Source: a virus (lineage: Duplodnaviria > Caudoviricetes). Taken from it: a DNA stretch of 55,447 nt. Shown here in pieces: positions 11,651 through 55,447 of this stretch. Position numbers and translations under genes: made by a program. Under the pieces are notes generated by a model that saw only the letters and a list, made by a program, of their open reading frames with translations, did no database searches and was not told the DNA's origin. Every line of letters starts with the position of its first letter. Within the stretch, counting starts at the first letter, position 1. The stretch spans positions 1-55,447 of IMG/VR virus record IMGVR_UViG_3300033150_000500; one strand, 5' to 3'.

Positions 11651-11654
11651 ACTG

Positions 11655-11662: not shown

Positions 11663-11715
11663 ATACATTTTCCCCGAATTGATACTTTTTGTCCTTAATT
11701 TATAATGAATCTAAG

Positions 11716-12774: not shown

Positions 12775-12778
12775 AATT

Positions 12779-13354: not shown

Positions 13355-13358
13355 TTTC

Positions 13359-14411: not shown

Positions 14412-14492
14412 ATCATTGATTATTTAAAAATTGTCATACCTAAGTAGCCCCAAACAAGGGCTATCAGAAATGACCAAACTTTCCTTTTTATA

Positions 14493-14870: not shown

Positions 14871-14872
14871 AG

Positions 14873-15256: not shown

Positions 15257-15268
15257 TTTTTACCTCCT

Positions 15269-15823: not shown

Positions 15824-15895
15824 AATTAATTAATTTTAAAAATTTTATACAATATTATACTAAAAAGTTAGTCAAAAAAATAACAATAAATAAAT

Positions 15896-26770: not shown

Positions 26771-27868
26771 TTAACTCCACATTGTATTAGACCCCATAAG
26801 TATTTCACGACCACATTCAAAGCAGTCGGTCTTCTGAACGTCTATATTTTTAACAATAAATTCTATCATTTCATTATATTCACCCATCCACCTTTCGTCC
26901 ATGTCGCCAAGAGTTTCTCCGTCAATCATTGTTTCAAAATTCAGGTTTTCACTCAGGGCAATATCACGCACAAGATTAGAAGCAGCCTTTAATCTGACAG
27001 CTTTCGCCATAGCCATATCTAAGGTGTCACCGATATAGTCCATTTCATCATAACACCATATTTCCTCTACCTTGCACCGCATCTTTAATCCCAACGATAA
27101 ACCAAAACACCTACTGTCAGAAGCCGGATTCAGGTCGCTGAAATCTGCCACATCCGTTAGGGTAACACCGGAAGCCTTTAAATAATCGGTAAAGCCAAAT
27201 TGCTTATTGCTTTGGGTCGCTGCTGGCGGACATAACGAACCACAGGCATCATAAAGTTTGTTGTCATAAGGCGTATTCGCTGCGTAAAGAAAAATAAAAT
27301 AATACTCTAAATTCTCAACATAGTCAGAGTGCATGGGTAAGGTAAGAGCGTCAATCGTATTCCCTTTAACCGCACCGGCAACGGTATTAACAGTATATGT
27401 TCCGTGTAAAGTATTCAGATTGTCGTAAACCAATACGTCAATAGTGCCTGTCGTATCAAACATTGTGGCTATGTCGCTCACCAATATCTCACCCCCCACA
27501 ATATCGTCACACTTCAAAACCAAGCCGTAGTATTTTCCTGCCGTCAAAGACAAGGCACTGTCACGCTTGACCTTCCCAATCCTGCCCTTAAATGGTCTGC
27601 GTTTTAGTTTATTGTATTCGGTAAGAATTGTGGTGGCATCAATACGAAAGTCAATAATAGCGTTGTCGCGGGCTTTCTCCATAAACGTAAATACGTTTTC
27701 CCCAACCTTACAGTTTAAGATTGCCTCAAACTTAGATAAAGGAATTATCTCGTCAAGGAAAAGCCCGCTATCTGAGGTGGTATAATCTGCGGACAAGCCC
27801 GTATAGTCGCTACAAGGCGTTCTGGTTAATCCTATAATATCCGCAAAACACGAAACCGAATCACTCAT
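26771..27868 (-). CDS. Head-tail adaptor-like protein
   Basis: First gene after the capsid; SDSGLFLDE motif; Cys-rich. Confidence 0.55.
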   Translation of the reverse strand: MSDSVSCFADIIGLTRTPCSDYTGLSADYTTSDSGLFLDEIIPLSKFEAILNCKVGENVFTFMEKARDNAIIDFRIDATTILTEYNKLKRRPFKGRIGKVKRDSALSLTAGKYYGLVLKCDDIVGGEILVSDIATMFDTTGTIDVLVYDNLNTLHGTYTVNTVAGAVKGNTIDALTLPMHSDYVENLEYYFIFLYAANTPYDNKLYDACGSLCPPAATQSNKQFGFTDYLKASGVTLTDVADFSDLNPASDSRCFGLSLGLKMRCKVEEIWCYDEMDYIGDTLDMAMAKAVRLKAASNLVRDIALSENLNFETMIDGETLGDMDERWMGEYNEMIEFIVKNIDVQKTDCFECGREILMGSNTMWS

Positions 27869-27996: not shown

Positions 27997-29007
27997 CTAT
28001 GGTGTAGCCCCGCAAACGAAACTTAATAGTCCCGTATTGTTGTCATCACAACCAGTTGGATTCCTGAACAGGTCAGCATTTAGCTTAATCTTGAAGTTAT
28101 GTTGGATTCTGTCGTCAGTCGTACATTCAGTCGTGTAATAAACATCATAACTAAATGGCAAGTAATCTGACTTCATCTGCCAACGTGTGAAAACGTCAGT
28201 CCTGTCAGGATTGATCGGATTCAATGCCCTTGAAGCCATCGCCAATGAACCCATTGAAAGCATATATGTTTTCAGGGTCGGATCATTAACACTGTCAATG
28301 TTGAACAGATCAAAATACATATCCATTCCACCGTACATGATCGCATCTCCTTTGCCGTCTGCGTTGGCGGCATTAGCTTTGGCAACCCACATTTGTTCGT
28401 ATAGGTTGTTGCCACTAAGCATCTTTGGTGTAGTGAACTGATTTAGTATAGCCACCCTTGAAAAGTAGGCAGCAAGTGAAGCGTTCCAGTAGGAGGGTGG
28501 AATATAGGTGTCAGCACCTACAACTGTGCCCTTACCAGCGGTAACGACATTCCAGCCCCGGAAGGCTTCAATTTGAGATACACAATATTGTGCAAAATTC
28601 TCTGTGATATTCTTGTCGGCAGTCAAGAATTGTTTTGCAATAGCACTCTTGATGTCGAACTCGTTATCATCAAAGTCAGCTTCGTCCTCTGAGAAGTTTA
28701 CGACCTTTTCATAAGTAAGGGCATATTCTTTCAGATTCGTAGAGCTTTTAGAACCACCAATGACACAGGTAACATTGTCTTCTACGGTCTGACCGCAGAC
28801 GTTTTGCCAGATAACCTCAACATCGACTACTTTACTTTTAGCCTTTGAGTTATAAACAGTGGCGGTCTGAACCGCCTGAACAGCCTTGATTACATCGTAA
28901 TTAGCTACATACTGTTGTTTAACTCTATCGTCAAATTTGATCTGGGCTGCACGTACTCTAATGTCATTAAGGATGGTTTCATCGAAATAACCAGCAGTTG
29001 TACTCAT
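27997..29007 (-). CDS. Major capsid protein
   Basis: 336 aa after the scaffold, followed by a strong terminator; double stop TAG TAA. Confidence 0.75.
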   Translation of the reverse strand: MSTTAGYFDETILNDIRVRAAQIKFDDRVKQQYVANYDVIKAVQAVQTATVYNSKAKSKVVDVEVIWQNVCGQTVEDNVTCVIGGSKSSTNLKEYALTYEKVVNFSEDEADFDDNEFDIKSAIAKQFLTADKNITENFAQYCVSQIEAFRGWNVVTAGKGTVVGADTYIPPSYWNASLAAYFSRVAILNQFTTPKMLSGNNLYEQMWVAKANAANADGKGDAIMYGGMDMYFDLFNIDSVNDPTLKTYMLSMGSLAMASRALNPINPDRTDVFTRWQMKSDYLPFSYDVYYTTECTTDDRIQHNFKIKLNADLFRNPTGCDDNNTGLLSFVCGATP

Positions 29008-29069
29008 TAAAATAAAAATTTGAAATTAATAGATTCCATCTGCTTTAGAGTGCAGCCATCTCCATCGGA

Positions 29070-29969
29070 TCAATCTTCCGCGTAGGTATATTTTGAGCCT
29101 ATCTCGACAAGTTTTTCACTGTCGCCACCAGCTTCATTTACCATTTTATTGTAGTCCTTTTTCGATAAAATATTTTTTGTTGGGTCAGGTCCTACTCCGC
29201 CCTGTGTATTCCCGGGTGCTTTCTTTGGATCTTGAACCTTAAAATCAAACAAGCTCTCAGCCTCGCTCTTTACAAAGGCATCAAAAACTATCGGGTTGCC
29301 GTGTCCATCCTCAAGTCGTGAATCACCATCTTTTATTACAATGTTTCCGTCTACAAATTCGTAATCAAAACCCTCGAACCTTGACAAGAACATTTCTGTT
29401 TGCTTTTTAGACCTTGCCGTGTCTTCAGATAGCACCGGATTAAGTTTTAAAAATGCCAGTTCAGCCCTATCTTTTACAAGTGAAACACTCTTGCCCTTCT
29501 CGACACCATTCTTAAAGGTATCAAACTCACCCTTTAATTCCTCAATCTGCACCTTAAAATTGTCGTTCATTTCCTTTTCTAACTTCAAAAACTCAGGGTT
29601 TGTTTTGATCTTTTCAAGTGTAATCTTGTTCCCGCTGTTCATTGATTCGCCAAATTCAGCGATAAGGTCTAATCCCCTCTTATCAGAATCCATACCAAAC
29701 TTATCCCTGACATCTTTCTCAAACTTTTCAAGGACTTCTTTCTTTGCCTTATTGTACCCTTCGTCAAATTTCTTTGTCGGATCACCTTTGGATTCTGCCC
29801 GTATCCGCTTGACTTTTTCTGCATCCATATCTATCAGGACGGTAGAGGCATCATCTTTCAACGCAAGCACATCGTCCTCGCCTTTGTCGTAAAGCAATTC
29901 TGTTAATTCTGTGTCTGTTTTGTTAAAGTATTTTGCAAATACATTTAAGATTAATTGCTGTTCGTTCAT
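29070..29969 (-). CDS. Capsid scaffolding protein
   Basis: Charged helical protein, FDEGYNKAK motif, Gly/Pro linker plus terminal helix. Confidence 0.7.
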   Translation of the reverse strand: MNEQQLILNVFAKYFNKTDTELTELLYDKGEDDVLALKDDASTVLIDMDAEKVKRIRAESKGDPTKKFDEGYNKAKKEVLEKFEKDVRDKFGMDSDKRGLDLIAEFGESMNSGNKITLEKIKTNPEFLKLEKEMNDNFKVQIEELKGEFDTFKNGVEKGKSVSLVKDRAELAFLKLNPVLSEDTARSKKQTEMFLSRFEGFDYEFVDGNIVIKDGDSRLEDGHGNPIVFDAFVKSEAESLFDFKVQDPKKAPGNTQGGVGPDPTKNILSKKDYNKMVNEAGGDSEKLVEIGSKYTYAED

Positions 29970-30555: not shown

Positions 30556-30804
30556 TTATTTGTCAAGTTTTCGGAAAACTTTAAATTCTTTGTGCATAAT
30601 ATACCACTTCAGTATTGCATGATCCATAGGGTAATTATCCTCACATAAATTGTAATCTTCCATAAACAACTCTACGCACCTTTTCAGTGTTACCGTAGGC
30701 ATCCCACGTTTCATGCCGATTACAAATGAAAACATCAAAAGGTCTAATGCTTCATACATTATCAGCTTTGGAACATCAATGTAATACTTTTTTTTCTTTG
30801 GCAT
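30556..30804 (-). CDS. Hypothetical protein
   Basis: ORF in operon context. Confidence 0.65.
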   Translation of the reverse strand: MPKKKKYYIDVPKLIMYEALDLLMFSFVIGMKRGMPTVTLKRCVELFMEDYNLCEDNYPMDHAILKWYIMHKEFKVFRKLDK

Positions 30805-31477
30805 CCCACATTCTTTTTACTTCATTAATATATTTCTTTCTCTGCTTTGATGTCAGCCTTGCTCGTTCTTTGTTGGTTAAAGAGTTTAATGTTTTGCTTC
30901 CAAAATCCAAATGCTTTACAAAAGCAGAACACACTAAAGCGTGTTTAATTCCACCGATTTTCAATTGTTCGGCATAGATGTTATCTGAATACCAAAAATC
31001 AACTGCGGTGTTAAACCCACCAAGTTTCTTAAACATTTTCCTTTCCACCCCTATACACCAGCCGGGAATATTCACCCCAACCTGATAGCCAACCTGTATA
31101 AAGTTCCCGTCCTTGAAATGTCGCGGGTGACTTACAGGACAGTAGGGACTAAGTGATTTATAACCCATCCTAAAAACCTTGTAACATTCATCAGCCCACC
31201 CGTCCGTAAACTCGAGATCATTGTTACAGAAAAACACATAATCACTCGTTGAAAGCGAAAACCCCTTGTTCATGGATTCATTGTAATTAAAGTCACCATG
31301 CTGGTAGAAAAATGTTGTCGTATTTTTGAATTTTACATCTATATCAAAACTTTCAAGAACAATTATATTTACTTTAACATTATTCTTTGCCTTCTTTAGA
31401 GATTTTATACAGTCAACTGTTATCTGCTTATGCTTCTTTGTCTTGCTATAAGCAAGAATTATAACGTCAAAGACCAT
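30776..31477 (-). CDS. Glycosyltransferase family 2
   Basis: DVIIL, FNYNESMNKG, YVFFCNND, GGF...FWYSD. Confidence 0.85.
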   Translation of the reverse strand: MVFDVIILAYSKTKKHKQITVDCIKSLKKAKNNVKVNIIVLESFDIDVKFKNTTTFFYQHGDFNYNESMNKGFSLSTSDYVFFCNNDLEFTDGWADECYKVFRMGYKSLSPYCPVSHPRHFKDGNFIQVGYQVGVNIPGWCIGVERKMFKKLGGFNTAVDFWYSDNIYAEQLKIGGIKHALVCSAFVKHLDFGSKTLNSLTNKERARLTSKQRKKYINEVKRMWDAKEKKVLH

Positions 31478-31730
31478 CTGTTTTATATTTTTTAATTAGA
31501 TCGGCAATACGACAAATACTACCCTCTATGTCATAGTAACATTCTTCTTGAACAATTATACCATGCCCATTATTATCCCAAGCAACAAATGTTTCATATT
31601 CTATCATCCCTATGGGTATTAAATCCCCGGTATTATCCGTACCATAATTAGGATAATGTCCATTATCTTTAATAATAATTATATCCAAAACCCCAAGACA
31701 AGTATCAATTTTTATGTTTTTATGTTTCAT
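31467..31730 (-). CDS. Hypothetical protein
   Basis: Overlapping start/stop within the cluster. Confidence 0.6.
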   Translation of the reverse strand: MKHKNIKIDTCLGVLDIIIIKDNGHYPNYGTDNTGDLIPIGMIEYETFVAWDNNGHGIIVQEECYYDIEGSICRIADLIKKYKTDGL

Positions 31731-32281
31731 TGTGTTTCGCTGGTTTTGTGATTAAAGTCATAAAAGTACAAAACTTTATTAATAAAAGCCTGACTTTTTA
31801 TTAACGGTTTTAGCCTTTTGGCATAGTCTGCGTCCTCGCTGAAGTTTATCTTCGGGAATCCAACCTTCAAAGCCAATTCTCTTTTCACGCACATGATATG
31901 ATTCGTAATCCGTTCATAATGATCTTTATGGTCTGAATCACACGTATATCTCGCATCATAGTAAACCCTTTTATACTTACTGCCGTTCACCGAACAATTC
32001 ACGCCAAAATTAATAACATCTGTTCCACTTTCTATTCCTTTTAAAATCAAAGAAACATAGTCGTCTGTTACCTTATCATCATCGTCCACAAATACCACAT
32101 ATTCACCTTGCGCAAGATTTAGAAGATCATTACGCTTTTGACCCACGCTTCGTTGTTTGTTGTCACCCAAATAAAGCACCTCTACGTCTTTTATCGTCTG
32201 TGGAAGCAATTTATCAAGCAACTTTGGTAGAAATGTTTTTGCCCTTGACGGTACTGTACAAATTAAAATACTTAGTTTCAT
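31727..32281 (-). CDS. Glycosyltransferase family 2
   Basis: KLSILICT, GQKRN..L..AQGEYVVFVDDDD, FSED. Confidence 0.9.
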   Translation of the reverse strand: MKLSILICTVPSRAKTFLPKLLDKLLPQTIKDVEVLYLGDNKQRSVGQKRNDLLNLAQGEYVVFVDDDDKVTDDYVSLILKGIESGTDVINFGVNCSVNGSKYKRVYYDARYTCDSDHKDHYERITNHIMCVKRELALKVGFPKINFSEDADYAKRLKPLIKSQAFINKVLYFYDFNHKTSETQ

Positions 32282-32403
32282 TTTACTCTGCTTATATTTT
32301 TACCACCACATCTCGGACACTTACAATTACATCCACATCCTTGATGCGTAAACCTTAACGGCTGCCCGTTTTCCGTACAATGCTTACACTGATAAACCTT
32401 CAT
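32278..32403 (-). CDS. 41-aa Cys-rich zinc-ribbon protein (absent from the ORF track)
   Basis: MKVYQCKHCTENGQPLRFTHQGCGCNCKCPRCGGKNISRVK; ATGA overlap with the GT2. Confidence 0.7.
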   Translation of the reverse strand: MKVYQCKHCTENGQPLRFTHQGCGCNCKCPRCGGKNISRVK

Positions 32404-32977
32404 TGAACTCGTCTATTGAAATCAAGTTTAAGTATGCTTTCCTGTTTTTAGCAAACTCCTCAAACGAAATATTGTCATCATCAAGAGGTGTCTGTTTGCC
32501 ATCCATTATCACGCCACAGCCCTGATCGGTGTCCACCACAAACATTTCCAAGCCTTTTACTGTGCGGAATTTCAACCACGCCCTCCATACCGTTCCGTTC
32601 CAATCTCCGACATGAGGCATCGGGTATTCCTGGTTTTTTTCTTCCTGCGGATTACAGTCGTGAACTACGATAGCACCATCGGGTGATATGCAACACATGG
32701 CATTTGAAATATCTTTTACAACCTGATTTTTTTCGTGTAAGCCGTCCACAAAAACAATGTCAAAAATATCTGTATTTTGAGCAAAGAACTCATCCGATGT
32801 CATTTCGTAGAACTCATTGGAGTTTTCATCTTTATGTTCTGTCGGCTCAGGGTCAACGCCAACCTTAAACTCGCATACTACGTTCTGCAAACACATATCA
32901 TTTTGCGTCCCGATTTCAAGATACTGCTTGTAGCCATATCTTTGTATTAGCTTATTTATTACTTCATAACGCCGCAT
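32384..32977 (-). CDS. Class I SAM-dependent methyltransferase (Methyltransf_24-like)
   Basis: YLEIG, GVDP, TSDEFF, FDIVFVDGLH, IVVHD, WNGTVW. Confidence 0.85.
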   Translation of the reverse strand: MRRYEVINKLIQRYGYKQYLEIGTQNDMCLQNVVCEFKVGVDPEPTEHKDENSNEFYEMTSDEFFAQNTDIFDIVFVDGLHEKNQVVKDISNAMCCISPDGAIVVHDCNPQEEKNQEYPMPHVGDWNGTVWRAWLKFRTVKGLEMFVVDTDQGCGVIMDGKQTPLDDDNISFEEFAKNRKAYLNLISIDEFNEGLSV

Positions 32978-33878
32978 ACCATTCTACTGTTTTATCTAAT
33001 CCATCCGCAAAGTTAGTAAATTCCATTAAGAAATCCTCTTTTATTAATGAGTTGTCTATGTTAAAGTTCCTGACATCACCAAACATCTCATCACCGTAGA
33101 CAAGTCCGCTGTCGTAAGTTCTTTCGTGAACCATTTTTGCAAGCTCATTTATGCTTACCTTTATCCCTGAAGCACAGTTGTAAATCCTGTTATCCATCTT
33201 TTCGCAAGCAACAATGTTGGCATGAACAACATCACCGACATAAGTAAATGAGCGTACCTGCTCACCGTCACCATGAATAAGTATAGGCTCCCCACTAACA
33301 ACTTTGCGTAAGAATATAGGTATTACGCCACCATGATCAGAGCTGTCTTGTTTTTCACCGTAAACATGGAAGTACCTCAATATTGTGTACTCAATTCCAT
33401 GTAAGTCGCCAAAGGCAGCCACGTACTTTTCCCCTGCCATCTTGCTTACCCCGTAATAACTGACAGGATTAAGCGGTGTAAATTCCGTTATCATCCCACC
33501 AACCTCTCCATATACAGACCCGGTAGAAGCGTGTACAATCTTATTTACTCCATTGTCAACCATAGACAGTAAGACGTTCAATGTGCCTCCTGCATTGATT
33601 TCACAGTCTTCAACAGGACTTCTCTCACAGACGGTCTTTTTGGCTGCCATCTGGTTAAAAACAACGTCAACGCCTTTCATGGAGAAATCTAATACCTTGC
33701 GATCTCTCACGTCACCATGAATAAATTTAAACTTTTTATTTTTTCTCAGGTGTGAAATGTTTATCGTCTTCCCTGTCGAAAGATTATCATAACAGATAAC
33801 CTTATCACCTCTTTCTAAAAGTGCTTCGCATAGGTGTGAACCTATAAATCCCGCACCGCCCGTTACCAATGCTTTCAT
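32964..33878 (-). CDS. NAD-dependent nucleotide-sugar epimerase (extended SDR)
   Basis: GGAGFIGS, ASTGSVYG, YGVSK, GDGEQVRSFTYVGD. Confidence 0.93.
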   Translation of the reverse strand: MKALVTGGAGFIGSHLCEALLERGDKVICYDNLSTGKTINISHLRKNKKFKFIHGDVRDRKVLDFSMKGVDVVFNQMAAKKTVCERSPVEDCEINAGGTLNVLLSMVDNGVNKIVHASTGSVYGEVGGMITEFTPLNPVSYYGVSKMAGEKYVAAFGDLHGIEYTILRYFHVYGEKQDSSDHGGVIPIFLRKVVSGEPILIHGDGEQVRSFTYVGDVVHANIVACEKMDNRIYNCASGIKVSINELAKMVHERTYDSGLVYGDEMFGDVRNFNIDNSLIKEDFLMEFTNFADGLDKTVEWYAAL

Positions 33879-34054
33879 AGCTTTTTAAATTTATAATTCA
33901 AAACATTCTTAATAGAATCTGACATTTCTTTCGTGTTTAACATCAATGCCCCGCCAAGGGTTATAAACATATCCCAACATTCATTATCTGTAATTGTTGG
34001 CAATACACTATTAACTTCTTTCTTGAATTTATCATATTGCTCACTTGCTTTCAT
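33875..34054 (-). CDS. 59-aa hypothetical protein (absent from the ORF track)
   Basis: MKASEQYDKF...YKFKKL; ATGA overlaps at both ends. Confidence 0.65.
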   Translation of the reverse strand: MKASEQYDKFKKEVNSVLPTITDNECWDMFITLGGALMLNTKEMSDSIKNVLNYKFKKL

Positions 34055-34551
34055 AAATAATTATTATATAGTTCATATATATACTCGTTATTTTTCTTAA
34101 ATATTTTTATCGCCTCTCGATTTGGGATATGTTTATGTTTGGACACATTTATCTTTTGTGGCTCAATGTATTCTTTACCCAAATAGTCAGTAAGTTTTTT
34201 AATGTCTTCGTCATACCTTTCATATATACCAACAAATTCCACACCATCTAACGGCGGCAAAAACCTAAGCATAGTAGACGGCTCACTCTTGAAATATTCA
34301 TCAACATCTGGCATATCCTTGTATTGTTTGGTATAATTATAATACGACAACTGTTGCTGATATGGCTCTCTTAAAAATAAAATATAATCCATGTTGTCAA
34401 GATAATAATGACCGTAAGCTATTTCATACCCGTCAGTATTATATGCTAAAGCATTATTATAAACAGTAAGCATTTTATCACCATACCACTCACGAAAAAC
34501 ATACCGCAGTGATGTCCCACCAGTTCGTGGGATATGGACAAACATTTTCAC
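34051..34551 (-). CDS. Sulfotransferase family 2-like protein
   Basis: FVHIPRTGGTS 5'-PSB loop, FLREP...SYY 3'-PB motif, FVGIYE. Confidence 0.8.
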   Translation of the reverse strand: MKMFVHIPRTGGTSLRYVFREWYGDKMLTVYNNALAYNTDGYEIAYGHYYLDNMDYILFLREPYQQQLSYYNYTKQYKDMPDVDEYFKSEPSTMLRFLPPLDGVEFVGIYERYDEDIKKLTDYLGKEYIEPQKINVSKHKHIPNREAIKIFKKNNEYIYELYNNYL

Positions 34552-34856
34552 AATACCACTATTTTTGGATATACTTTTTCTTTATCAGTCATGCCATACA
34601 ATAATATATGTACCCGGTCACCAATTTTGAAATGATTGGCAGCAGCACCGTTCAGGCAAACCTCTCCGCCCTCACCCGAAATAACATACGTTTCCCAATG
34701 ATTTCCCGTATCTATACAATTAACGTGAACCATATCGTACTCTTTAAAGTCAACTAATGCCATCAAATCTCGTCCTAACGTAATACTGCCATCATAATCA
34801 AGGTTCGCACCTGTTACAGTTGTTGTTAATTTAGCAATTAATTTTTGTACATACAT
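34548..34856 (-). CDS. panD: Pyruvoyl-dependent decarboxylase, aspartate 1-decarboxylase family (divergent)
   Basis: K9, ANLDYDG/SIT self-cleavage site, ETYVI, CLNGAAA, GDRVHI. Confidence 0.9.
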   Translation of the reverse strand: MYVQKLIAKLTTTVTGANLDYDGSITLGRDLMALVDFKEYDMVHVNCIDTGNHWETYVISGEGGEVCLNGAAANHFKIGDRVHILLYGMTDKEKVYPKIVVL

Positions 34857-35563
34857 TTTAGCATCTCCTTAAATTTTTCAGCAATTAATAATAATTCCTC
34901 TTTTGGTCTGCCATATAATATATTATATGAAGCAGTTTCGTTTACATCAATAATATATAATTTCCCATCGTCATCACGCATAATGTCAAGATCAGCAAAG
35001 TCAATCCCAAATAATCCACAAAATGTAAGTATATCTTGGCTTTCTAATGACGTAAACGGACTTACCACCTCGCAACCATCATAATAACCAACTATGCCTT
35101 TAGGGAAATGTAGTAATCTTGGTACTGTGCGTTCCCAGCAAATCACAATCTCACCACCAATAATCGTACACCTGTATTCTTTTGTTGGCGTACCACCAAG
35201 AACCCTTTGGTAAATAAAACCCTCCTCGTTGTCTGGCTTATCTAATATTCCAGATAATTCCTTATTGGCATGATGAATTGACTTTTTCACACACCGCCCA
35301 CTTTTGACAATGGAAGAATATTTAAAAACAATCTCAAACGCCCCGTCTATTGATTTTTTGTCGGTAGAACAAATTGTGTTGTTTATTACTGGTATATCTG
35401 ACTTAAAATCCACCACATTCCCATAACTATTTTTAAAATCGAAATATATCACATAATCATACTCGTCATTTATATCATTCGTCTGCTTAATGCCAAGAAC
35501 ATTTAATATGGCATCAAGTTTATGATAAAACGCCCTGTCTGGATATACGAGTATTGTTTTCAT
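34838..35563 (-). CDS. ATP-grasp ligase-like protein
   Basis: DK, VKKS, IYQR, EYR, GIDFADLDIMRD..GKLYIIDVN. Confidence 0.75.
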   Translation of the reverse strand: MKTILVYPDRAFYHKLDAILNVLGIKQTNDINDEYDYVIYFDFKNSYGNVVDFKSDIPVINNTICSTDKKSIDGAFEIVFKYSSIVKSGRCVKKSIHHANKELSGILDKPDNEEGFIYQRVLGGTPTKEYRCTIIGGEIVICWERTVPRLLHFPKGIVGYYDGCEVVSPFTSLESQDILTFCGLFGIDFADLDIMRDDDGKLYIIDVNETASYNILYGRPKEELLLIAEKFKEMLKCMYKN

Positions 35564-36273
35564 GCTTTGTCGTTTGTTCCATGTTTATAAACCGAAAATA
35601 TATCACCTTGTAATAAATCCCAATATGGCGTTGCGAAATTATGAACCGTTAAACTTTCCGTGGGTGCTTTTATTGTTCGACCCAAAGAAATCTCAACCCT
35701 TATATTGTCCAGCTTCCACCTAACGTAATCAAAACTGAGTTGGTCACGGTAGCTACCGGTCATCACTTGATGCCACCATTCACGCTCAAAATCTTCCATA
35801 GTTACATTATTATGCCTGCCAATAATCCCACAAGCATTTAGTCCGTAATTTTCAGGGAAACCCTCTGCACGATACCTCGCCATCTGCGGGATAAAATTTA
35901 ACGAATTGTCAATGCCCTCTTTTTCTATTATTTTTGCCTCCTCGTAAATACAAGTCCTACAAGGGTGCTTCATCATATTGAAATCTTTTCCGTAGTCGAT
36001 ATCTAATTTATTCAAGTCACCGTCAACGTGAATCTGCCCGCCAATCATAAGCGAATAATCGTATTCTTTGGGAACAAATAAATGCGAGTTAATGTAAACG
36101 TATCGTGCCGCTAAATAATCCGGCAACGGAGTTGTGACCACCCTAATATCCCAAACATTACTTTTAATGTCAGTTCTGTTGGTAAACATCAAATAGTCCC
36201 ACCCTTCACTTTTGAACGGCTCATGCGGCTTATCGTGGTCACCAAAATGTATTGTATAAAGACACTTTTTCAT
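35560..36273 (-). CDS. DUF616 (TOD1/MUCI70-like) glycosyltransferase
   Basis: YT..FGD.D, FTN, HPCRTCIYEEA, SYRDQLSF. Confidence 0.8.
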   Translation of the reverse strand: MKKCLYTIHFGDHDKPHEPFKSEGWDYLMFTNRTDIKSNVWDIRVVTTPLPDYLAARYVYINSHLFVPKEYDYSLMIGGQIHVDGDLNKLDIDYGKDFNMMKHPCRTCIYEEAKIIEKEGIDNSLNFIPQMARYRAEGFPENYGLNACGIIGRHNNVTMEDFEREWWHQVMTGSYRDQLSFDYVRWKLDNIRVEISLGRTIKAPTESLTVHNFATPYWDLLQGDIFSVYKHGTNDKA

Positions 36274-36537
36274 TTAACTTTTCTTCTTTTTCTTTTCTTT
36301 AATAACATTCCATTTCCCACTTTTGCAATCCAATCGAATCTCTATTTTTAATGCGTCTAACATTAAATGAATACAGCTCTCAAGATTCAGGTATGGTATT
36401 AACTTAAATTTAGACCTGCCATCCGTCCACCCCTCCATACGTCCACCAGTATGATTTAAACACGCTTTTTCAAGGTATTCTATCCTTGACAATAATTCCT
36501 CATTCCTAATACGGCTTCTTTTCTTAAATATCTTCAT
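36274..36537 (-). CDS. Hypothetical protein
   Basis: ORF in operon context. Confidence 0.6.
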   Translation of the reverse strand: MKIFKKRSRIRNEELLSRIEYLEKACLNHTGGRMEGWTDGRSKFKLIPYLNLESCIHLMLDALKIEIRLDCKSGKWNVIKEKKKKKS

Positions 36538-36574
36538 AATTATAATCCATTTAAATGTTTATAAATACACCTTT

Positions 36575-36880
36575 TCATTTACCTGTTTTTTCGTAATATT
36601 CCAAATCATCAACATCACAAATAGAACGAGTGGGGCATCCACCATAAGTCAGAAACAACACCCCTTCTTTAAATCTCACAGATCGTGAACCCTTTTCAAA
36701 CATCTGTTCTCCTGCGTATGCCGGATTTGTCCATGCTTTCTTCCACCCCAAATCCAAAAGCTCTTGTGTGGTAAACGCATGAAATAATTTACCTAATTGC
36801 ACCATATATTCTTCGTCTATTGCATCTTTCTTTTGAGCAATTTCCTGCTTTAGCACAATTATCTTTTCCCTGTTTTTCAT
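36575..36880 (-). CDS. Hypothetical protein
   Basis: ORF in operon context. Confidence 0.65.
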   Translation of the reverse strand: MKNREKIIVLKQEIAQKKDAIDEEYMVQLGKLFHAFTTQELLDLGWKKAWTNPAYAGEQMFEKGSRSVRFKEGVLFLTYGGCPTRSICDVDDLEYYEKTGK

Positions 36881-37155
36881 AACGTCTTTAAATGTTTATA
36901 AAGTTCATGCCAGCCGTCTATCTTGACTTTGCATAATTCAATCCTGGATTCAATCAGATTCTTTCGTGCATCACCGTGAGCAATCTTGTATTTGTCACCG
37001 CCTATATGTTCTACGTGGCAGTCCATAACCAAAAGATTCAACAATGAAGCAGCATCTTTTTTTCCCTGACCTACAAAGTGCATAAACTCCTTGAACGTGA
37101 AATTTCGCCCAAGAGTTAGCTTTCGTATGTCGTATGCTATGTCTTTAAGTGCCAT
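36877..37155 (-). CDS. Hypothetical protein, possible winged helix
   Basis: FTFKEF...LLNLLV..HVEHIGGDKY. Confidence 0.55.
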   Translation of the reverse strand: MALKDIAYDIRKLTLGRNFTFKEFMHFVGQGKKDAASLLNLLVMDCHVEHIGGDKYKIAHGDARKNLIESRIELCKVKIDGWHELYKHLKTL

Positions 37156-37156
37156 A

Positions 37157-37411
37157 TTAACACAAATTATCTACGTATTTTTTTATTTCATCAATCGTAG
37201 CCCCCTTATCAATCATATCACCAATATCTGATTTTATAGTATTGTAATAAAAATCTGCTTGTGCTGAATCTATTTCAGAATAAATGATATTAACATCGTA
37301 ATCAGTATAACTCATTCTGCTATTCGTGGCATAACATAGAACACAACTATAATCATATTGCAACCTATCGTAATCTAATGCTTTGCGAAAAAATCTTATT
37401 ATTCTTTTCAT
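37157..37411 (-). CDS. Hypothetical protein
   Basis: ORF in operon context. Confidence 0.6.
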   Translation of the reverse strand: MKRIIRFFRKALDYDRLQYDYSCVLCYATNSRMSYTDYDVNIIYSEIDSAQADFYYNTIKSDIGDMIDKGATIDEIKKYVDNLC

Positions 37412-37412
37412 C

Positions 37413-38051
37413 TTAGTGGTCTAATAATCCCGGAACATGGCAAACTCCAAATCCTGCCGTGTTCAAGCGTTTATAATTATCACTTATTACCTTTAATGTA
37501 TTTACAAAATTCCAATCATGTAAATATGTTGTTTTCTCATTCCACCACGCATTCATATCTACCTTATGACAAATATTTGATGTCCCACATTGACCCTGCG
37601 TATGTATCGAACAAACATGGCGGTCAAACTGCTCTGTCTTTTTATTCCAACTCATATCATCGAACCAATACCAATCACAGTCGGTCATCTCTATTTGTAA
37701 TGATTCCAAATAACCATCAAGGTACAAATCATCAACGTCCAAATAAATAGCATATTCGCCTTTTGCCTTCTGAAGCCCTGCGTTTCTCGCCCTGCCTGAA
37801 GAGCCAGCGTTACGCTTTGAGCCTCGCACCTTTTTGTATTGAATCTTAAAGAGATTAATGTTCTTATTCCCGTAAAAGTTGTTCCTGATTATCTCTATGG
37901 TTTTATCACAGCCATCAGCTACAATTATCAACTCAAAATCTTTTTGGGTTAAAACAGAATTAACAGCCCTGACAATCTTTTCGTCACGGTTGCTTGCTGC
38001 TCGTTTGTACTCGCCCAAGAATGAGGGCATTATGACTGAGAATTTAGGCAT
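37413..38051 (-). CDS. Glycosyltransferase family 2
   Basis: FSVIMPS, ELIIVADG, ARNAGL..AKGEYAIYLDVDD, HDW. Confidence 0.9.
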   Translation of the reverse strand: MPKFSVIMPSFLGEYKRAASNRDEKIVRAVNSVLTQKDFELIIVADGCDKTIEIIRNNFYGNKNINLFKIQYKKVRGSKRNAGSSGRARNAGLQKAKGEYAIYLDVDDLYLDGYLESLQIEMTDCDWYWFDDMSWNKKTEQFDRHVCSIHTQGQCGTSNICHKVDMNAWWNEKTTYLHDWNFVNTLKVISDNYKRLNTAGFGVCHVPGLLDH

Positions 38052-38674: not shown

Positions 38675-38829
38675 GATGTACTAAATATTATATTTCCTTT
38701 TCCGTGATAGCTTCCAAAATAGTCGTGGCAAAACCACTCAAATGTTCCATCCAAAAATAGCACATGAGCGTATTGCCCGACTTCTGCCGTGTATTTTATT
38801 GCTTTATTTATTGCTTTACTTTTCTCCAT
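38662..38829 (-). CDS. 55-aa hypothetical protein (absent from the ORF track)
   Basis: MEKSKAINKAIKYTAEVG...FEWFCHDYFGSYHGKGNIIFSTSWEK. Confidence 0.6.
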   Translation of the reverse strand: MEKSKAINKAIKYTAEVGQYAHVLFLDGTFEWFCHDYFGSYHGKGNIIFSTSWEK

Positions 38830-39407
38830 TGTGAACCTCCTGCAAATTTTCTTCTACCATTGCAACACGCAGAAATATTAGAATGATGAATCTCTGTTTT
38901 TCTTGCCGCACTATTAATTGAATAATATTTTGCAATATCAACATTACCAATAAATTGAATAATTGAAATACATTGTTTTGTATTAATTCCATTCAATGAA
39001 TCTGACATATATCGTTGATTATTCTCTCTCCACGTAACAACCCTTAAATTATCAAGTGTATAGGGCTTATAATCATCAAGCCTGTCGCACGATGGTCTTA
39101 ATCTTGTATTATATCCAGATTCTTTCCAATTATCATATAACTCATGGAATACACGCTGAGAAAACATCCATTCTCGTAATTCACCAAGCGTATATGTTGG
39201 CATTGGGTCGCCACGCTTTCTTGATGTTGCTCTTTGCGTTGAATATATAGTAGATATTAAACCATCTTTTGTTTTTTGGTATTCTTGAATAGCAATATTT
39301 TTACAGTCATTACACCAAGAACATTTCCCATCTTTTGTTTCTGGATGTCTATTAAACCGATTAATTGGTTTCGGCTCACCACACTTTGTACAAATCTTAG
39401 TTTCCAT
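38808..39407 (-). CDS. Free-standing HNH-like homing endonuclease with NUMOD1
   Basis: Same architecture as 8979-9578 (RPSCDRLDDYKPYTLDNL..TW.EN); start placed at METKIC. Confidence 0.75.
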   Translation of the reverse strand: METKICTKCGEPKPINRFNRHPETKDGKCSWCNDCKNIAIQEYQKTKDGLISTIYSTQRATSRKRGDPMPTYTLGELREWMFSQRVFHELYDNWKESGYNTRLRPSCDRLDDYKPYTLDNLRVVTWRENNQRYMSDSLNGINTKQCISIIQFIGNVDIAKYYSINSAARKTEIHHSNISACCNGRRKFAGGSQWRKVKQ

Positions 39408-39408
39408 A

Positions 39409-40200
39409 TTATTTCTTTTTAAGCTCTTCCTTTGCTCGTTCATCTGTTATGAATAATGGATAATGCCTACAACCCCACCTGCCTCTGTCTATTAGTGGGT
39501 TATAGTCATCGACATTGGGGTATCCGGGAAGCGTTGAATCGTTTTTCCAATCATCAATATTGTCTTTATTAAAAACAAGATCGTTACGCTTTATACAAAA
39601 CTCACGGCTTGTTGAAATAAGCCCGCCAGCATAAATAAAATATTTAAGACCATTTTGTTCTGCGTGTGCAGAAGATAAAATTGCATCGAACTGCATAACG
39701 CTGTCGTATAGGAAGTTACGATAATATCTATTCAGGACGCCACTGCGGTCTTTTAAGCCCAATATATCCCTCATACCCAAACGTATCGTTCCCATGCTCC
39801 TATGCGAAGAAATACTACCAAGTAAATAATTCTTTACCTGTTGCTTTACGGGTTCTAAAACAGACACGCTTTGCAGGTAGTTTTCCATCCTTGTCATTAG
39901 CGCATCAAACCCTTTAAAACTTTTAGCATCTAAACCCAAAGAATCGAAATAATCCACATAGAATTTATCCAGCCCTCTCAAATGTGTAGTTATTCTTTTT
40001 AGAAATGGTAATTGTGAATTTTTGTTGAAGGTGATAAAGGCATTGTCGATTTTACCCACAAGTGAAATGTTCTTTGAATTAAACACAGCCTTTCCGTCTA
40101 CGAAAAGCAACCCAACAATTACAGCCATGATCTCGTCATACAAGTCACGTTCAAGCTGTTCTGTTTCTTTTTCAACCTTATTTACAAACTCATCAATCAT
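39409..40200 (-). CDS. Minor head morphogenesis protein (SPP1 gp7/Mu F-like)
   Basis: YFIYAGG..SREFC and RGRWGCRH motifs; after the portal. Confidence 0.75.
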   Translation of the reverse strand: MIDEFVNKVEKETEQLERDLYDEIMAVIVGLLFVDGKAVFNSKNISLVGKIDNAFITFNKNSQLPFLKRITTHLRGLDKFYVDYFDSLGLDAKSFKGFDALMTRMENYLQSVSVLEPVKQQVKNYLLGSISSHRSMGTIRLGMRDILGLKDRSGVLNRYYRNFLYDSVMQFDAILSSAHAEQNGLKYFIYAGGLISTSREFCIKRNDLVFNKDNIDDWKNDSTLPGYPNVDDYNPLIDRGRWGCRHYPLFITDERAKEELKKK

Positions 40201-55352: not shown

Positions 55353-55447
55353 AAATAAAAAACCAGCCGTAGAATTGTAAAACGGTGCAATAATAACCGC
55401 ATCACTCCTTTCGGTAGTGAAATTCATAGCTGGATTTATTTCGTTGT
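55334..55447. repeat. Terminal direct repeat, right copy
   Basis: Identical to 1-114. Confidence 0.97.

Follow-up and report, generated by a model that had tools for sequence, protein, structure and literature searches.

Sugar-adding and sugar-decorating enzymes encoded among the head genes of an uncultured phage lineage

Gene layout between the portal and putative capsid genes

The window, by which we mean the whole stretch of DNA that was analysed, corresponds to a complete virus record of 55,447 bp that carries terminal repeats and has every gene on the minus strand. Between the terminase and portal genes on one side and the putative scaffold and capsid genes on the other, nine enzymes are encoded that add or decorate sugars. 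All nine had been named by the first-pass annotation, and the ORF list together with family and structure searches confirmed each of them at the following positions:

42570-43880, minus strand: TerL, terminase large subunit (Pfam Terminase_3, 3.8e-48)
40388-42223, minus strand: portal protein (8-orthologue profile against the PDB portal protein 9wwa, 1.7e-8)
39409-40200, minus strand: putative minor head protein (conservation in relatives)
38808-39443, minus strand: HNH/endonuclease VII-like gene (phrog_1035, 1.1e-23; Pfam I-HmuI NUMOD-like)
37413-38051, minus strand: glycosyltransferase (GT) GT2_A, first cassette gene (Pfam PF00535, 6.2e-14)
36274-37411, minus strand: four small ORFs of 84, 92, 101 and 87 aa with no assigned function (ORF list)
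35560-36273, minus strand: DUF616/TOD1_MUCI70-type GT (PF04765, 2.3e-7; phrog_26101 glycosyltransferase, 3.8e-21)
34838-35563, minus strand: RimK-like ATP-grasp ligase (ESM Atlas structure; weak NCBIfam matches)
34548-34856, minus strand: PanD-family pyruvoyl-dependent decarboxylase (PF02261, 7.5e-26; PDB aspartate decarboxylase 3oug, 2.1e-13)
34051-34551, minus strand: minimal PAPS-type sulfotransferase, 166 aa (phrog_3347, E 1e-4; AlphaFold and Foldseek)
32964-33878, minus strand: SDR, nucleotide-sugar 4-epimerase-like (PF01370, 2.1e-59)
32384-32977, minus strand: class-I SAM methyltransferase, Methyltransf_24 (PF13578, 3.7e-8)
31727-32281, minus strand: GT2_B (PF00535, 8.8e-9; phrog_8858, 6.4e-51)
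31467-31730, minus strand: 87-aa ORF between GT2_B and GT2_C, no assigned function
30776-31477, minus strand: GT2_C, last cassette enzyme (PF00535, 1.8e-5; phrog_22332, 1.2e-25)
30556-30804, minus strand: 82-aa ORF, companion of GT2_C
29070-29969, minus strand: putative scaffold, 299 aa (gene order, conservation in relatives)
27997-29007, minus strand: putative major capsid protein, 336 aa (gene order, conservation, adjacent hairpin)
20992-24297, minus strand: tape measure

The operon-like packing with overlapping genes described previously was also borne out: of the 14 junctions between 38051 and 30556, eight are overlaps of 4–29 nt, three are gaps of 0–1 nt and the other three are gaps of 37, 102 and 172 nt. 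The scaffold and capsid genes are assigned putatively, from gene order, conservation in relatives and a strong terminator-like hairpin (27951-27930) directly 3′ of the 336-aa ORF. Neither ORF had a match in Pfam, PHROG, PDB or cultured phages that would name it, and the AF2 model of the putative capsid protein was poor (pLDDT 42). Similarly, no family match in Pfam or PHROG was found for the putative minor head protein of the window, orthologues of which are kept in relatives either 3′ of the portal gene or 3′ of the GT cassette; the orthologue in one relative (L003) carries a fused ADP-ribosyltransferase domain. The HNH/endonuclease VII-like gene, which separates the minor head gene from the cassette and is absent from the sister phage L002, is a mobile insert outside the pathway.

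Among the small ORFs, those of 87 aa (36274-36537) and 101 aa upstream of the DUF616 gene belong to no Pfam family, and L002 lacks both this 87-aa ORF and the 84-aa ORF (37157-37411). The other 87-aa ORF (31467-31730) belongs to no Pfam, PHROG or NCBIfam family and had no tblastn match in L002 at E 1e-3 or better. The 82-aa ORF has a homologue directly 3′ of GT2_C in L006 and in several other loci.

Assignment of the enzymes

GT2_C scored 25.2 bits with PF00535, for which the cut-off is 23.3. The DUF616 protein scored 30.9 bits against the PF04765 cut-off of 21.4, with a match confined to the C-terminal 134 of the 314 positions in the profile. A plant member of the DUF616 family, MUCI70, is described as having galacturonosyltransferase activity (PMC10576798), and the DUF616 GT of the window is possibly a uronic-acid transferase.

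The ATP-grasp protein belongs to no Pfam family and gave only weak RimK/MptN matches in NCBIfam (E 0.04-0.05), and the ESM Atlas model of the exact protein resembles the RimK/LysX/glutathione-synthetase ATP-grasp clusters with TM values of 0.74-0.78. Only five homologues were found among 5.8 billion clustered proteins. We propose that this enzyme is an amidoligase; the ATP-grasp domain of Campylobacter jejuni Cj1438, which is fused to a GT2 domain, is reported to amidate glucuronate at its C6 carboxylate (PMC11800379). In the PanD-family protein the Gly-Ser cleavage site aligns with that of 3oug, and 138-142 of the 143 best representatives retain the expected residue at each of the Lys, Tyr, Gly-Ser, Thr, Tyr and Asn positions. 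The position equivalent to Arg54 is Arg in 124 and His in 12 of the same 143 sequences, and the window protein has His there, which makes beta-alanine a plausible, not a secure, amine product. The PanD genes of cultured phages sit in replication modules, as in Achromobacter phage 2-1, where the gene is beside that for DNA polymerase, and in Jace, where it adjoins a gene for an ATP-binding protein.

By sequence, the sulfotransferase matched phrog_3347 only (E 1e-4). Its AlphaFold (AF2) model had a mean pLDDT of 92.6, and the top Foldseek matches of this model in the PDB were all PAPS sulfotransferases (probability 1.00, TMq 0.56-0.64, best E 1.6e-4); its ESM Atlas features likewise led to PF03567 clusters. 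Across 10 homologues the segments HIPRTGGTS and FLREP...SYYNY do not vary. The closest solved structure to the SDR is the UDP-glucose 4-epimerase 4zrm (1.7e-56), followed by the WbpP/WbgU UDP-HexNAc 4-epimerases.

Conserved ends and a variable middle of the cassette

Orthologues of GT2_A, 30-48% identical and with an invariant YLDxDD motif in their alignment, led us to 52 viral loci, in which the portal gene was located by HMM. A portal match lay on the strand of GT2_A in 47 of these loci, and in 43 GT2_A was 0-7 ORFs downstream of it (no intervening ORF in 13 loci, one in 17, two in 6 and three to seven in 7). GT2_C was found in 31 of the 52; many of the others end just past GT2_A. Portal and GT2_A distances were correlated (Mantel r 0.85, 44 pairs), so the two proteins co-diverge. 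With the set made non-redundant at 90% portal identity (33 phages), r was 0.83, a value reached in none of 2000 permutations, and the median distance was 0.52 for both proteins. The homologues are thus not scattered, in keeping with the linkage to head genes that the first-pass annotation had suggested. These phages form a large uncultured lineage, in the head module of which GT2_A and GT2_C are old genes passed on by vertical descent. The host of this lineage is probably a member of the Bacteroidota. Seven portal relatives span the region from portal to scaffold/capsid; three have GTs there (L002, L003 and L006) and four have none (L005, L007, L011 and L012), so the cassette is dispensable for head assembly.

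The enzymes between GT2_A and GT2_C differ from phage to phage, in which the inner cassette resembles O-antigen clusters, which differ between strains. The 51 cargo proteins encoded from portal to scaffold in related phages included, by Pfam, GT2 (11), DUF5131 (4), Methyltransf_24 (3), TylF (2) and GT1 (2), with one epimerase, GT17, radical SAM, MptE-like and Sulfotransfer_2 protein each. The cassette of L006 encodes six GTs, a B12-radical-SAM enzyme and an SDR. The sister phage, about 95% identical to the window, lacks the sulfotransferase, which is a strain-variable accessory gene, and the DUF616/ATP-grasp/PanD block is special to the window phage and this sister. Elsewhere, DUF616 and SDR homologues lie upstream of the terminase in other relatives (in L112 and L113 a 52%-identical DUF616 homologue adjoins the SDR, upstream of TerL), a 28%-identical ATP-grasp homologue follows a GT trio in L021, a 26%-identical sulfotransferase homologue follows GT2_C in L061, and in L114, L115, L153 and L165 a methyltransferase homologue immediately precedes a GT2_B-family gene. 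The earlier list of enzymes holds, and the pathway they form is not a fixed unit.

Relatives of GT2_B are encoded in at least 498 viral loci. Among cultured phages (50,697 records) the family is confined to 39 records from Mycobacterium phages and 22 from Gordonia phages. GT2_B is 41% identical to the N-terminus of Che8 gp108 and 44.5% identical to LittleE gp15, which is encoded directly 3′ of the capsid gene in a cluster of four GTs. GT2_C is 32% identical to the C-terminus of LittleE gp17, and gave no match to the C-terminal half of Che8 gp108 (3.5%). In L142 a 698-aa fusion of GT2_B and GT2_C domains (hhalign 99.4%) lies directly 3′ of an SPP1-type coat protein gene (PDB 4an5, 1.2e-48), and in L096 a GT2_B-family member lies between a putative portal gene (size, order) and an HK97-type capsid gene (PDB 2gp1, 2.4e-12). 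GT2_B is a member of a phage-wide family associated with capsid genes; that unrelated phages have members of this family next to proven capsid genes upholds the proposed association with head genes.

A proposed glycan on virion proteins and the alternatives

Virion proteins of Che8, Corndog and Myrna are reported to be glycosylated (PMC12363180; PMC12619734), and in Corndog the portal and protease genes flank a methyltransferase and three GTs (PMC4351075; record annotation). Che8 gp110 and Corndog gp38 are termed essential for capsid glycosylation (PMC12363180). No homologue of these two was found in the window phage (hhalign probability below 1% for GT2_A, GT2_C and DUF616), and tblastn with the window proteins gave no match in the Corndog region.

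The best explanation of the cassette, which we regard as an even call, is that virion proteins are glycosylated in the cytoplasm and that the glycan includes a uronic acid, amidated with an amine of the phage's own making. The cassette, phage-encoded and expressed late, would attach a decorated glycan to virion proteins of the phage itself while these are in the cytoplasm of the host, and would have two layers: a core of GT2_A, the middle GT2 and GT2_C with its 82-aa partner, and a variable inner part, here the DUF616 GT, the ATP-grasp and PanD-like enzymes, the sulfotransferase, the SDR and the methyltransferase. In the first step, soluble GT-A enzymes would build a short chain on the acceptor protein from host UDP-sugars, one of which the SDR would epimerise. 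DUF616 would then add a uronic acid, the carboxylate of which the ATP-grasp enzyme would amidate with beta-alanine or a related amine supplied by the PanD-like enzyme. Finally, the glycan would be capped by the methyltransferase and, in this strain alone, by the sulfotransferase as well. In this scheme we infer the acceptor protein, each sugar with its donor, the sequence of steps, the amine, the host, the identity of the capsid gene and the union of all decorations in one product. Among orthologues of the putative capsid protein, no Ser/Thr-rich extension sets phages that have the cassette apart from those that lack it.

The main alternative named by the first-pass annotation is that the cassette remodels a host O-glycan precursor in the cytoplasm. 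Glycans linked to Und-PP are likewise built by soluble GT2 enzymes, at the cytoplasmic face of the membrane, and the curated NCBIfam models that come closest, PglI, TuaG and WcaA, are enzymes of this kind, all matched far below their cut-offs. Lysogenic serotype conversion of the GtrABC type is unlikely: no cassette protein contains a hydrophobic 19-mer, and such segments occur in 19 of the 119 minus-strand ORFs of the genome, with at most three per ORF, so the absence of a flippase, polymerase and polytopic GT noted by the first-pass annotation holds; in addition, the scanned ORFs include no integrase or recombinase family, and the record is complete, with terminal repeats. DNA hypermodification through hydroxymethyl-pyrimidine fits poorly, as had been argued before, since no thymidylate-synthase-like or hydroxymethylase family was found among the scanned ORFs of at least 200 aa.

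Taken as a whole, the earlier interpretation, a multi-sugar glycan that is sulfated, methylated and amidated and most likely carried by virion proteins, is partly supported. Glycan coating of a phage's own particle has so far been shown only for phages of mycobacteria; what is new here is the old, inherited place of the first and last GTs in the head module of this uncultured lineage.

Genome layout and the enzymes of the cassette

The window, which is the whole virus record (55,447 bp), has direct terminal repeats and is rated complete. All of its plausible ORFs of at least 100 aa are carried by the minus strand, and it contains no tRNA genes. Read along that strand, small early-looking genes are followed by the terminase, portal, minor head and HNH genes, the glycan cassette, the scaffold and capsid ORFs, the tape measure gene, and then the tail, lysis and replication genes.

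Features of the window, in minus-strand order (coordinates, strand, product)
42570-43880, minus strand: large terminase, TerL (Pfam Terminase_3, 3.8e-48)
40388-42223, minus strand: portal protein, 611 aa (profile of 8 orthologues versus PDB portal protein 9wwa, 1.7e-8)
39409-40200, minus strand: putative minor head protein, 263 aa, between the portal and HNH genes
30556-38051, minus strand: glycan cassette
37413-38051, minus strand: GT2_A, the first family-2 glycosyltransferase (GT2) of the cassette
35560-36273, minus strand: DUF616 protein
34838-35563, minus strand: ATP-grasp enzyme
34548-34856, minus strand: PanD-family decarboxylase
34051-34551, minus strand: sulfotransferase
32964-33878, minus strand: SDR (4-epimerase-like)
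32384-32977, minus strand: methyltransferase (Methyltransf_24)
31727-32281, minus strand: GT2_B, the middle GT2
30776-31477, minus strand: GT2_C, the last GT2
27997-29969, minus strand: putative scaffold and capsid (299-aa and 336-aa ORFs)
26771-27868, minus strand: 365-aa neighbour of the putative capsid
after the capsid ORF, minus strand: tape measure protein, 1101 aa
370-4071, minus strand: replication genes, last in the order

The first-pass annotation had placed the cassette between the portal gene and the genes for scaffold and capsid. Its position downstream of the portal was confirmed, whereas the other boundary is formed by putative genes: we infer that the 299-aa and 336-aa ORFs encode scaffold and capsid from synteny and from a strong terminator-like hairpin located directly 3' of the 336-aa ORF. 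Overlaps occur at eight of the 14 junctions within the cassette and gaps of just 0-1 nt at another three; the DUF616, ATP-grasp, PanD and sulfotransferase genes are joined by overlaps of 4, 19 and 4 nt. The enzymes are small and soluble. No cassette protein contains a hydrophobic 19-mer and no ORF of the genome contains more than three, in agreement with the initial claim that no flippase, polymerase or polytopic transferase is present. The ORFs scanned against families comprised all of those of at least 200 aa and only a minority of those below 100 aa. Integrase or recombinase families were not found among them, nor were a thymidylate-synthase-like hydroxymethylase, 5-hmdU kinase, DNA polymerase or base-exchange enzyme, so that for the scanned ORFs (all of those of at least 200 aa) the reported absence of a pyrimidine-hydroxymethylation gene stands.

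All of the enzymes previously listed for the cassette were recovered, six of them as plain Pfam matches. The SDR is nearest to UDP-hexose and UDP-HexNAc 4-epimerases. The 241-aa ATP-grasp enzyme had no Pfam match and no PDB sequence match, and its sequence-only (NCBIfam) matches were weak. Its fold was recognized in the ESM Atlas model of the exact protein (pTM 0.80), which aligned over residues 1-241 (TM 0.74-0.78) to RimK/LysX/glutathione-synthetase clusters, with PF08443 present in 46-100% of their members. Just five homologues were found among 5.8 billion clustered proteins. In viral contigs, its only relatives were that of the near-identical sister phage (L002) and a protein of 625 aa on an unrelated contig, whose context was uninformative. 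The 166-aa sulfotransferase gave one weak PHROG match by sequence, and its fold was recognized in an AF2 model (pLDDT 92.6) built from 10 homologues. All of the Foldseek matches listed against the PDB were PAPS sulfotransferases (11 at E <=0.001, TMq up to 0.64), led by heparan-sulfate 3-O- and 2-O-sulfotransferases. The segments HIPRTGGTS and FLREP..Q.SYYNY are invariant in the 10 homologues, and we take them to resemble the 5'-phosphosulfate and 3'-phosphate binding motifs of PAPS sulfotransferases.

The 102-aa PanD protein is like aspartate 1-decarboxylase PanD (PF02261, TIGR00223) in size, fold family, self-cleavage site and conserved positions. Aligned to PDB entries 3oug and 2c45, it keeps the Gly-Ser self-cleavage site, and it has the catalytic Lys, Tyr, Thr-Tyr and Asn positions that are kept in 138-142 of 143 relatives (those shorter than 260 aa among the best 150 listed in a search of 1.84 billion proteins). 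It differs in having His at the position equivalent to Arg54 (among the 143 relatives, R in 124, H in 12 and another residue in 7), in scoring below the curated TIGR00223 equivalog cut-off (74.7 versus 106 bits) while passing the PF02261 domain cut-off (90.7 versus 25), and in being encoded in a sugar cluster rather than with the pantothenate pathway. In E. coli PanD, Arg54 binds the distal carboxylate of the substrate. Judged from its sequence, the window protein is very probably an active pyruvoyl decarboxylase; since its substrate is not certain, neither is the amine that it makes. In cultured phages, the homologues are encoded outside sugar clusters: in Achromobacter phage 2-1 (L018) and phage Jace (L017) they lie in replication modules, directly upstream of a DNA polymerase gene or beside an 'ATP binding protein' and a ParB-like gene. 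These phage PanDs may have a role in nucleotide or DNA chemistry.

Outside the cassette, two DNA methyltransferase genes lie at 370-975 and 2408-3166 (phrog_11619, 2e-32; phrog_67, 9e-33), beside helicase/primosomal genes. Three paralogous HNH/endonuclease VII-like genes are found at 38808-39443, 8979-9578 and 54762-55427 (phrog_1035, E 1e-23, 9e-15 and 7e-27, respectively); the first of these, in the head module, is missing in L002, as expected of a mobile homing endonuclease. The ORF at 9818-10468 encodes a DUF5131 (phage Gp37/Gp68, radical-SAM-like) protein, a family also represented by four of 51 portal-scaffold cargo proteins of related phages. A run of proteins of 213, 113, 191 and 350 aa with an N-terminal hydrophobic segment (10468-14411) and small proteins with two or three hydrophobic segments (11716-12604) are probably lysis genes and secreted or lipoprotein-like genes. 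TAnnTTTG, which we take to be the Bacteroidota -7 promoter element, occurs in intergenic gaps at 38192, 40276, 42539, 30543 and 27892, just upstream of GT2_A, the minor head gene, a 107-aa gene, a 92-aa gene and the 365-aa gene, respectively; overall it was not clearly enriched, with 50 sense versus 42 antisense occurrences in the window. In a sequencing-run index, two DNA runs from one study shared 0.10 of the window's words and no RNA run matched, a result with no bearing on expression or habitat.

Related phages and the place of the cassette in the head module

Portal pattern scans identified L002 (83-99% nucleotide identity in blocks) and nine distant relatives (31-37% portal identity), one of which is on a contig of 65 kb that was binned with a Chitinophagaceae genome. 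Megablast revealed no near-identical cultured phage, and TerL had only ~30% identity to its counterparts in cultured phages, those of Flavobacterium phages. Together with Bacteroidia-labelled GT2_B homologues and with Shine-Dalgarno cores that are not enriched upstream of genes (8/63 versus 11.6% at random positions), these indirect clues suggest that the host is probably a member of Bacteroidota.

L002 has the same cassette but no sulfotransferase ORF, no HNH gene and neither of two small ORFs of 84 and 87 aa; a different 87-aa ORF, the one between GT2_B and GT2_C, had no match in L002 at E <=0.001. In all, four indels distinguish the window from its sister. Seven relatives span the region from portal to scaffold/capsid. 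Glycosyltransferases are present there in three of them (L002, L003 and L006) and not in the other four (L005, L007, L011 and L012), where six-frame searches with the GT2_A, GT2_B and GT2_C models gave no match. The slot in L003 holds an MptE-like protein and three GT2s; in L006, GT2_A and GT2_C enclose four further GT2s, a GT17, a B12-binding radical-SAM enzyme and an SDR. The first gene of all three cassettes is a GT2_A orthologue and the last enzyme is a GT2_C orthologue. The radical-SAM enzyme of L006 (the same locus as L032; 12921-14024) lies amid six glycosyltransferases, including the GT17, a family rare in bacteria, which points to sugars that are C-methylated or unusual in some other way.

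A scan with the GT2_A alignment yielded 52 viral loci, three of which were contigs already found via the portal. A portal HMM match was present on the GT2_A strand in 47 loci, and in 43 of these GT2_A follows the portal at a distance of 0-7 ORFs (0 ORFs, 13 loci; 1, 17; 2, 6; 3-7, 7). The exceptions were two loci with glycosyltransferase genes upstream of the terminase, two incomplete loci and five loci without a same-strand portal. The usual order is terminase, portal, GT2_A, a GT2 of 203-246 aa, GT2_C, an ORF of the 82-aa type, minor head, scaffold and capsid; GT2_C was found in 31 of the 52 loci and the middle 203-246-aa family in 29, with one member confirmed as a Pfam GT2. Among 51 other cargo proteins of the slot, sugar enzymes predominate: Pfam assigned 11 to GT2, four to DUF5131, three to Methyltransf_24, two to TylF, two to GT1 and one each to epimerase, GT17, radical SAM, MptE-like and Sulfotransfer_2. 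Decorating enzymes recur as separate add-ons, because an ATP-grasp homologue follows the glycosyltransferase trio in L021, where PanD is absent, and in L061 a homologue of the sulfotransferase comes after GT2_C.

Pairwise distances of portal and GT2_A were correlated (r 0.85, 44 phages), also among 33 phages made non-redundant at 90% portal identity (r 0.83, with none of 2000 permutations as high), and the median distance was 0.52 for both proteins. In a quick portal tree, the cassette-bearing phages fell into a clade of 25 (support 100) and a clade of 8 (support 88), with the cassette-free phages outside both; the clade of 8 includes the window, and there the minor head gene precedes the cassette. 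Co-divergence with the portal and the distribution of the clades argue that the core glycosyltransferase is a head-module-like gene and not a recent moron. The linkage to head genes proposed from the window alone is therefore far stronger and wider than could be seen there. In 401 sampled Bacteroidota genomes, the best match to GT2_A had E 3.8e-23, 116 genomes had matches at E <=1e-15, and the similarity was mostly to the generic N-terminal half. Since these genomes show generic GT2 similarity only, GT2_A looks phage-specific.

The 299-aa and 336-aa ORFs had no naming match in families, the PDB or cultured phages. For the 336-aa putative capsid, tblastn against cultured phages gave no match, profiles of this protein and of its 365-aa neighbour found nothing meaningful among PDB sequences, and an AlphaFold model made with six orthologues had a pLDDT of 42, too low for a fold search. 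Because of this low pLDDT and the lack of PDB-sequence and cultured-phage matches, we keep the label 'putative' for the capsid. No Ser/Thr-rich extension of the capsid orthologues distinguishes cassette-bearing from cassette-free phages. The 365-aa protein (26771-27868), encoded directly after the putative capsid gene, is conserved among its orthologues (alignment A6), with invariant cysteines that include a CG motif and a C-terminal CxxC; it has no family or PDB match. It may serve as a decoration protein or as a second protein of the head, which would make it a candidate glycan acceptor. In L007, a phage without the glycan cassette, a DUF6734 protein (15051-15896, 1.6e-35) is encoded between the putative capsid gene and the gene of the 365-aa type. 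The minor head orthologue of L003 (14798-16390) is about twice as long (530 aa) and has a C-terminal ADP-ribosyltransferase domain (PF03496, 3.9e-8), so that in sequence it looks like a head-packaged effector fusion; the counterpart in L012 lies at 13864-15384.

The GT2_B family and glycosylation systems of other phages

GT2_B does not represent the usual middle GT2 of the lineage. This assignment was rejected, as a profile of 120 GT2_B homologues misses the 203-246-aa family at E <=0.001; given the absence of a profile match, the two are different GT2 families that occupy one slot. Among cultured phages, relatives of GT2_B were confined to records of Mycobacterium phages (39) and Gordonia phages (22), with 40-48% identity. 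The family is common in metagenomes, which yielded 174 proteins at E <=1e-20; two of these were labelled as coming from Bacteroidia genomes. GT2_B relatives are encoded by at least 498 viral loci. We kept 80, and annotated 79 loci with our own HMMs and three PDB look-ups only. Four (L104, L112, L113 and L116) belong to the window's lineage; the order GT2_A, GT2_B, GT2_C is seen in the first three, and L116 has an extra 203-aa ORF after GT2_A. GT2_B is followed by GT2_C in 17 of the 79 loci and immediately preceded by a Methyltransf_24 gene in four, and in L112 and L113 a DUF616 gene (52% identical) and an SDR gene are found just upstream of the terminase. A 698-aa protein of L142 combines an N-terminus of the GT2_B type with a C-terminus of the GT2_C type (hhalign 99.4%), and its gene directly follows that of an SPP1-type coat protein (PDB 4an5, 1.2e-48). 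In L096, a member of the GT2_B family is encoded upstream of an HK97-type capsid gene (PDB 2gp1, 2.4e-12). The PDB look-up of a 340-aa protein of L135 gave nothing.

To our knowledge, virion glycosylation by phage-encoded enzymes has been shown in mycobacteriophages only. It shields their particles from antibodies, and was reportedly described for Che8 (cluster F), Corndog (cluster O) and Myrna (cluster C) by Freeman et al. 2023 (Cell Host Microbe); Che8 gp108 reportedly has a role in the glycosylation of Che8. Glycosylated virion proteins of these three phages are described in excerpts of two papers, with the glycans at the C-termini of capsid and tail-tube subunits (PMC12363180, PMC12619734), and Che8 gp110 and Corndog gp38 are given as essential for capsid glycosylation (PMC12363180). 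Corndog has a methyltransferase and three glycosyltransferases between the portal and the protease (PMC4351075), as the annotation of its record also shows.

The cassette is like the regions of Che8, Corndog and mycobacteriophage LittleE in that soluble phage glycosyltransferases and a methyltransferase are encoded in or beside the virion structural genes, and GT2_B is 41-48% identical to glycosyltransferases of the 61 Mycobacterium and Gordonia records. Its homologue LittleE gp15 (44.5%) is encoded directly after the capsid gene in a four-glycosyltransferase cluster, and the C-terminal part of LittleE gp17 has 32% identity to GT2_C. The N-terminal half of Che8 gp108 is 41% identical to GT2_B (E 2e-28); a relationship of GT2_C to the C-terminus of gp108 was rejected by hhalign. 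No homologue of Che8 gp110 or Corndog gp38 was found, the hhalign probability being 0.05-0.26% for GT2_A, GT2_C and DUF616, and in tblastn none of 30 window proteins matched the Corndog region, Che8 gp109 or Che8 gp110. The priming enzyme of the cassette must therefore be another one, and the cassette is not a strict member of the Che8/Corndog system. By analogy, it probably works like that system, with which it shares one enzyme family. The two differ further in host (probably Bacteroidota versus Actinomycetota) and in that the virion glycans of Che8 and Corndog were observed, whereas the window system is known from genes; among the regions compared, including that of LittleE, DUF616, ATP-grasp, PanD, sulfotransferase and epimerase are annotated in the window only. 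Searches of the open-access literature retrieved no paper joining phage, aspartate decarboxylase, ATP-grasp and glycosyltransferase and, by that wording, none on a phage-glycosylated major capsid protein; among the papers listed on glycan shields, the sole one about a phage was a note on the actinobacteriophage Maravista, and no mention of 'capsid glycosylation' was found among the Bacteroides-phage papers listed.

Possible functions of the cassette

The reading that we favor, with moderate confidence, is cytoplasmic glycosylation of virion proteins, in which a uronic acid would be amidated with a phage-made amine. The only DUF616-family activity that we found described is that of MUCI70, a galacturonosyltransferase (excerpts of PMC10576798). 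By analogy, the DUF616 protein would add a uronic acid, the ATP-grasp enzyme would amidate it with the PanD product, and the glycan would then be methylated and, in this strain, sulfated, which makes a coherent order of reactions. The capsule cluster of C. jejuni HS:2 likewise combines a GT2, a uronate ATP-grasp amidoligase and amine-making enzymes, and the GT2-fused ATP-grasp domain of Cj1438 is described there as amidating the C6 carboxylate of glucuronate (excerpts of PMC11800379). The phage differs in having no export or polymerization genes, in its amine source (a PanD-type decarboxylase instead of the serinol/ethanolamine phosphate pathway) and, by description, in its ligase, which is RimK-like whereas Cj1438C is called TupA-like. 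The interpretation offered in the first-pass annotation is supported in part: linkage to head genes held, the acceptor, the product and the capsid identity are putative, and the enzyme that defines the known system (gp110/gp38) is missing. A more specific proposal, which we put forward tentatively, is that a lineage of uncultured, probably Bacteroidota phages glycosylates its own capsid with strain-variable glycans, made by a portal-inherited cassette that diversifies like an O-antigen locus; here the coat would be acidic or zwitterionic and glycosaminoglycan-like, with a uronic acid amidated via the His-variant PanD, O-methylated and, in this strain, sulfated.

It is unlikely, on present evidence, that the soluble glycosyltransferases instead remodel the host envelope by acting at the cytoplasmic face on lipid-linked precursors of O-glycan, LPS or capsule, the altered glycan being exported by host flippases, which could serve to block adsorption of progeny or competing phages to infected cells and debris. 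GT2s of this size commonly use Und-PP-linked acceptors, and the nearest NCBIfam models are PglI, TuaG, WcaA and EpsD, but these matches were far under the cut-offs. The phage-borne GT2 is common to the cassette and to the GtrABC modules with which temperate phages convert the O-antigen serotype, and phrog_22739 'GtrB-like' matches residues 1-118 of GT2_A (5.5e-10). However, the window encodes neither a GtrA-like flippase nor a polytopic transferase of the GtrC type, none of its glycosyltransferases has a C-terminal membrane anchor, and polymerase and ligase are absent as well; the cassette belongs to the head operon instead of adjoining an attachment site, in a genome that has terminal repeats and whose scanned ORFs include no integrase. 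Bacterial polysaccharide clusters typically encode epimerase, methyltransferase, sulfotransferase and amidoligase (excerpts of PMC11800379), and in four of the seven portal relatives the cassette is dispensable for head assembly. Against this, core glycosyltransferases that are fixed in the head module and diverge with the portal would be unusual for a host-interaction moron, GT2_A finds only generic, N-terminal similarity (best E 3.8e-23) in the 401 Bacteroidota genomes, and genes of the GT2_B family adjoin capsid genes in unrelated phages.

Less probable still is a split of functions, in which the glycosyltransferases modify virion proteins while the ATP-grasp enzyme and PanD put beta-alanine or another amine on a protein carboxylate (a C-terminus or acidic side chain, of virion or host). 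RimK-type and tubulin-tyrosine-ligase-type ligases add to protein carboxylates, and the ATP-grasp enzyme is similar to clusters of the RimK/LysX/TTL/R2K type, whose members ligate peptides or proteins; its homologue in L021 occurs without PanD. R2K-type ATP-grasp ligases of jumbo phages were predicted to be protein modifiers (excerpts of PMC7824862), but a glycan-amidating ATP-grasp domain fused to a GT2 is also known (excerpts of PMC11800379), the DUF616, ATP-grasp, PanD and sulfotransferase genes are translationally coupled inside a sugar cluster, and no target protein is evident.

We consider it improbable that the cassette makes a free product, whether a soluble or secreted glycoconjugate or a small molecule aiding infection, or that it is unrelated cargo at an insertion hotspot. 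The portal-scaffold slot of relatives does also hold HNH endonucleases and DUF5131 proteins (the latter four of the 51 cargo proteins) and, in L009, a fibre-repeat protein and, in L012, five small genes of unknown function, and the four indels relative to the sister phage would fit a hotspot. Sugar enzymes nevertheless predominate among the cargo, GT2_B and GT2_C are fused in L142, the pairs Methyltransf_24-GT2_B, GT2_B-GT2_C and DUF616-SDR recur in other phages, and the overlapping stop and start codons argue for a single co-translated unit. Modification of phage DNA by a glycan or an amino-acid-derived adduct as an escape from restriction is very unlikely: phage glycosyltransferases are best known from DNA glucosylation (excerpts of PMC12619734 and PMC12801897), PanD homologues occur in the replication modules of Achromobacter phage 2-1 and Jace, and the window has two DNA methyltransferase genes, but the scanned ORFs include no hydroxymethylase, kinase, DNA polymerase or base-exchange enzyme, and the cassette is part of the head module, at a great distance from the replication genes, with its core staying there in 43 of 52 related contigs.

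As minimal enzymes, the His-variant PanD and the sulfotransferase of 166 aa also merit attention. If a lineage of such phages does glycosylate its capsid, this would provide the first case of virion glycosylation beyond the actinobacteriophages, as well as the first phage particle known to be sulfated or beta-alanylated. Should the cassette glycosylate virions, the trait would be widespread in environmental phages of another bacterial phylum and, because of the co-divergence with the portal, old; its chemistry would be richer than that of the known examples, with amidation, methylation and sulfation added, and the variable central part of the cassette would be equivalent, on the phage side, to serotype loci. 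The question would then arise of what selects for diversity of the particle surface in sediments and waters, where there are no antibodies; candidate forces are attachment to mucus or to particles, resistance to proteases or grazers, and avoidance of host decoys.
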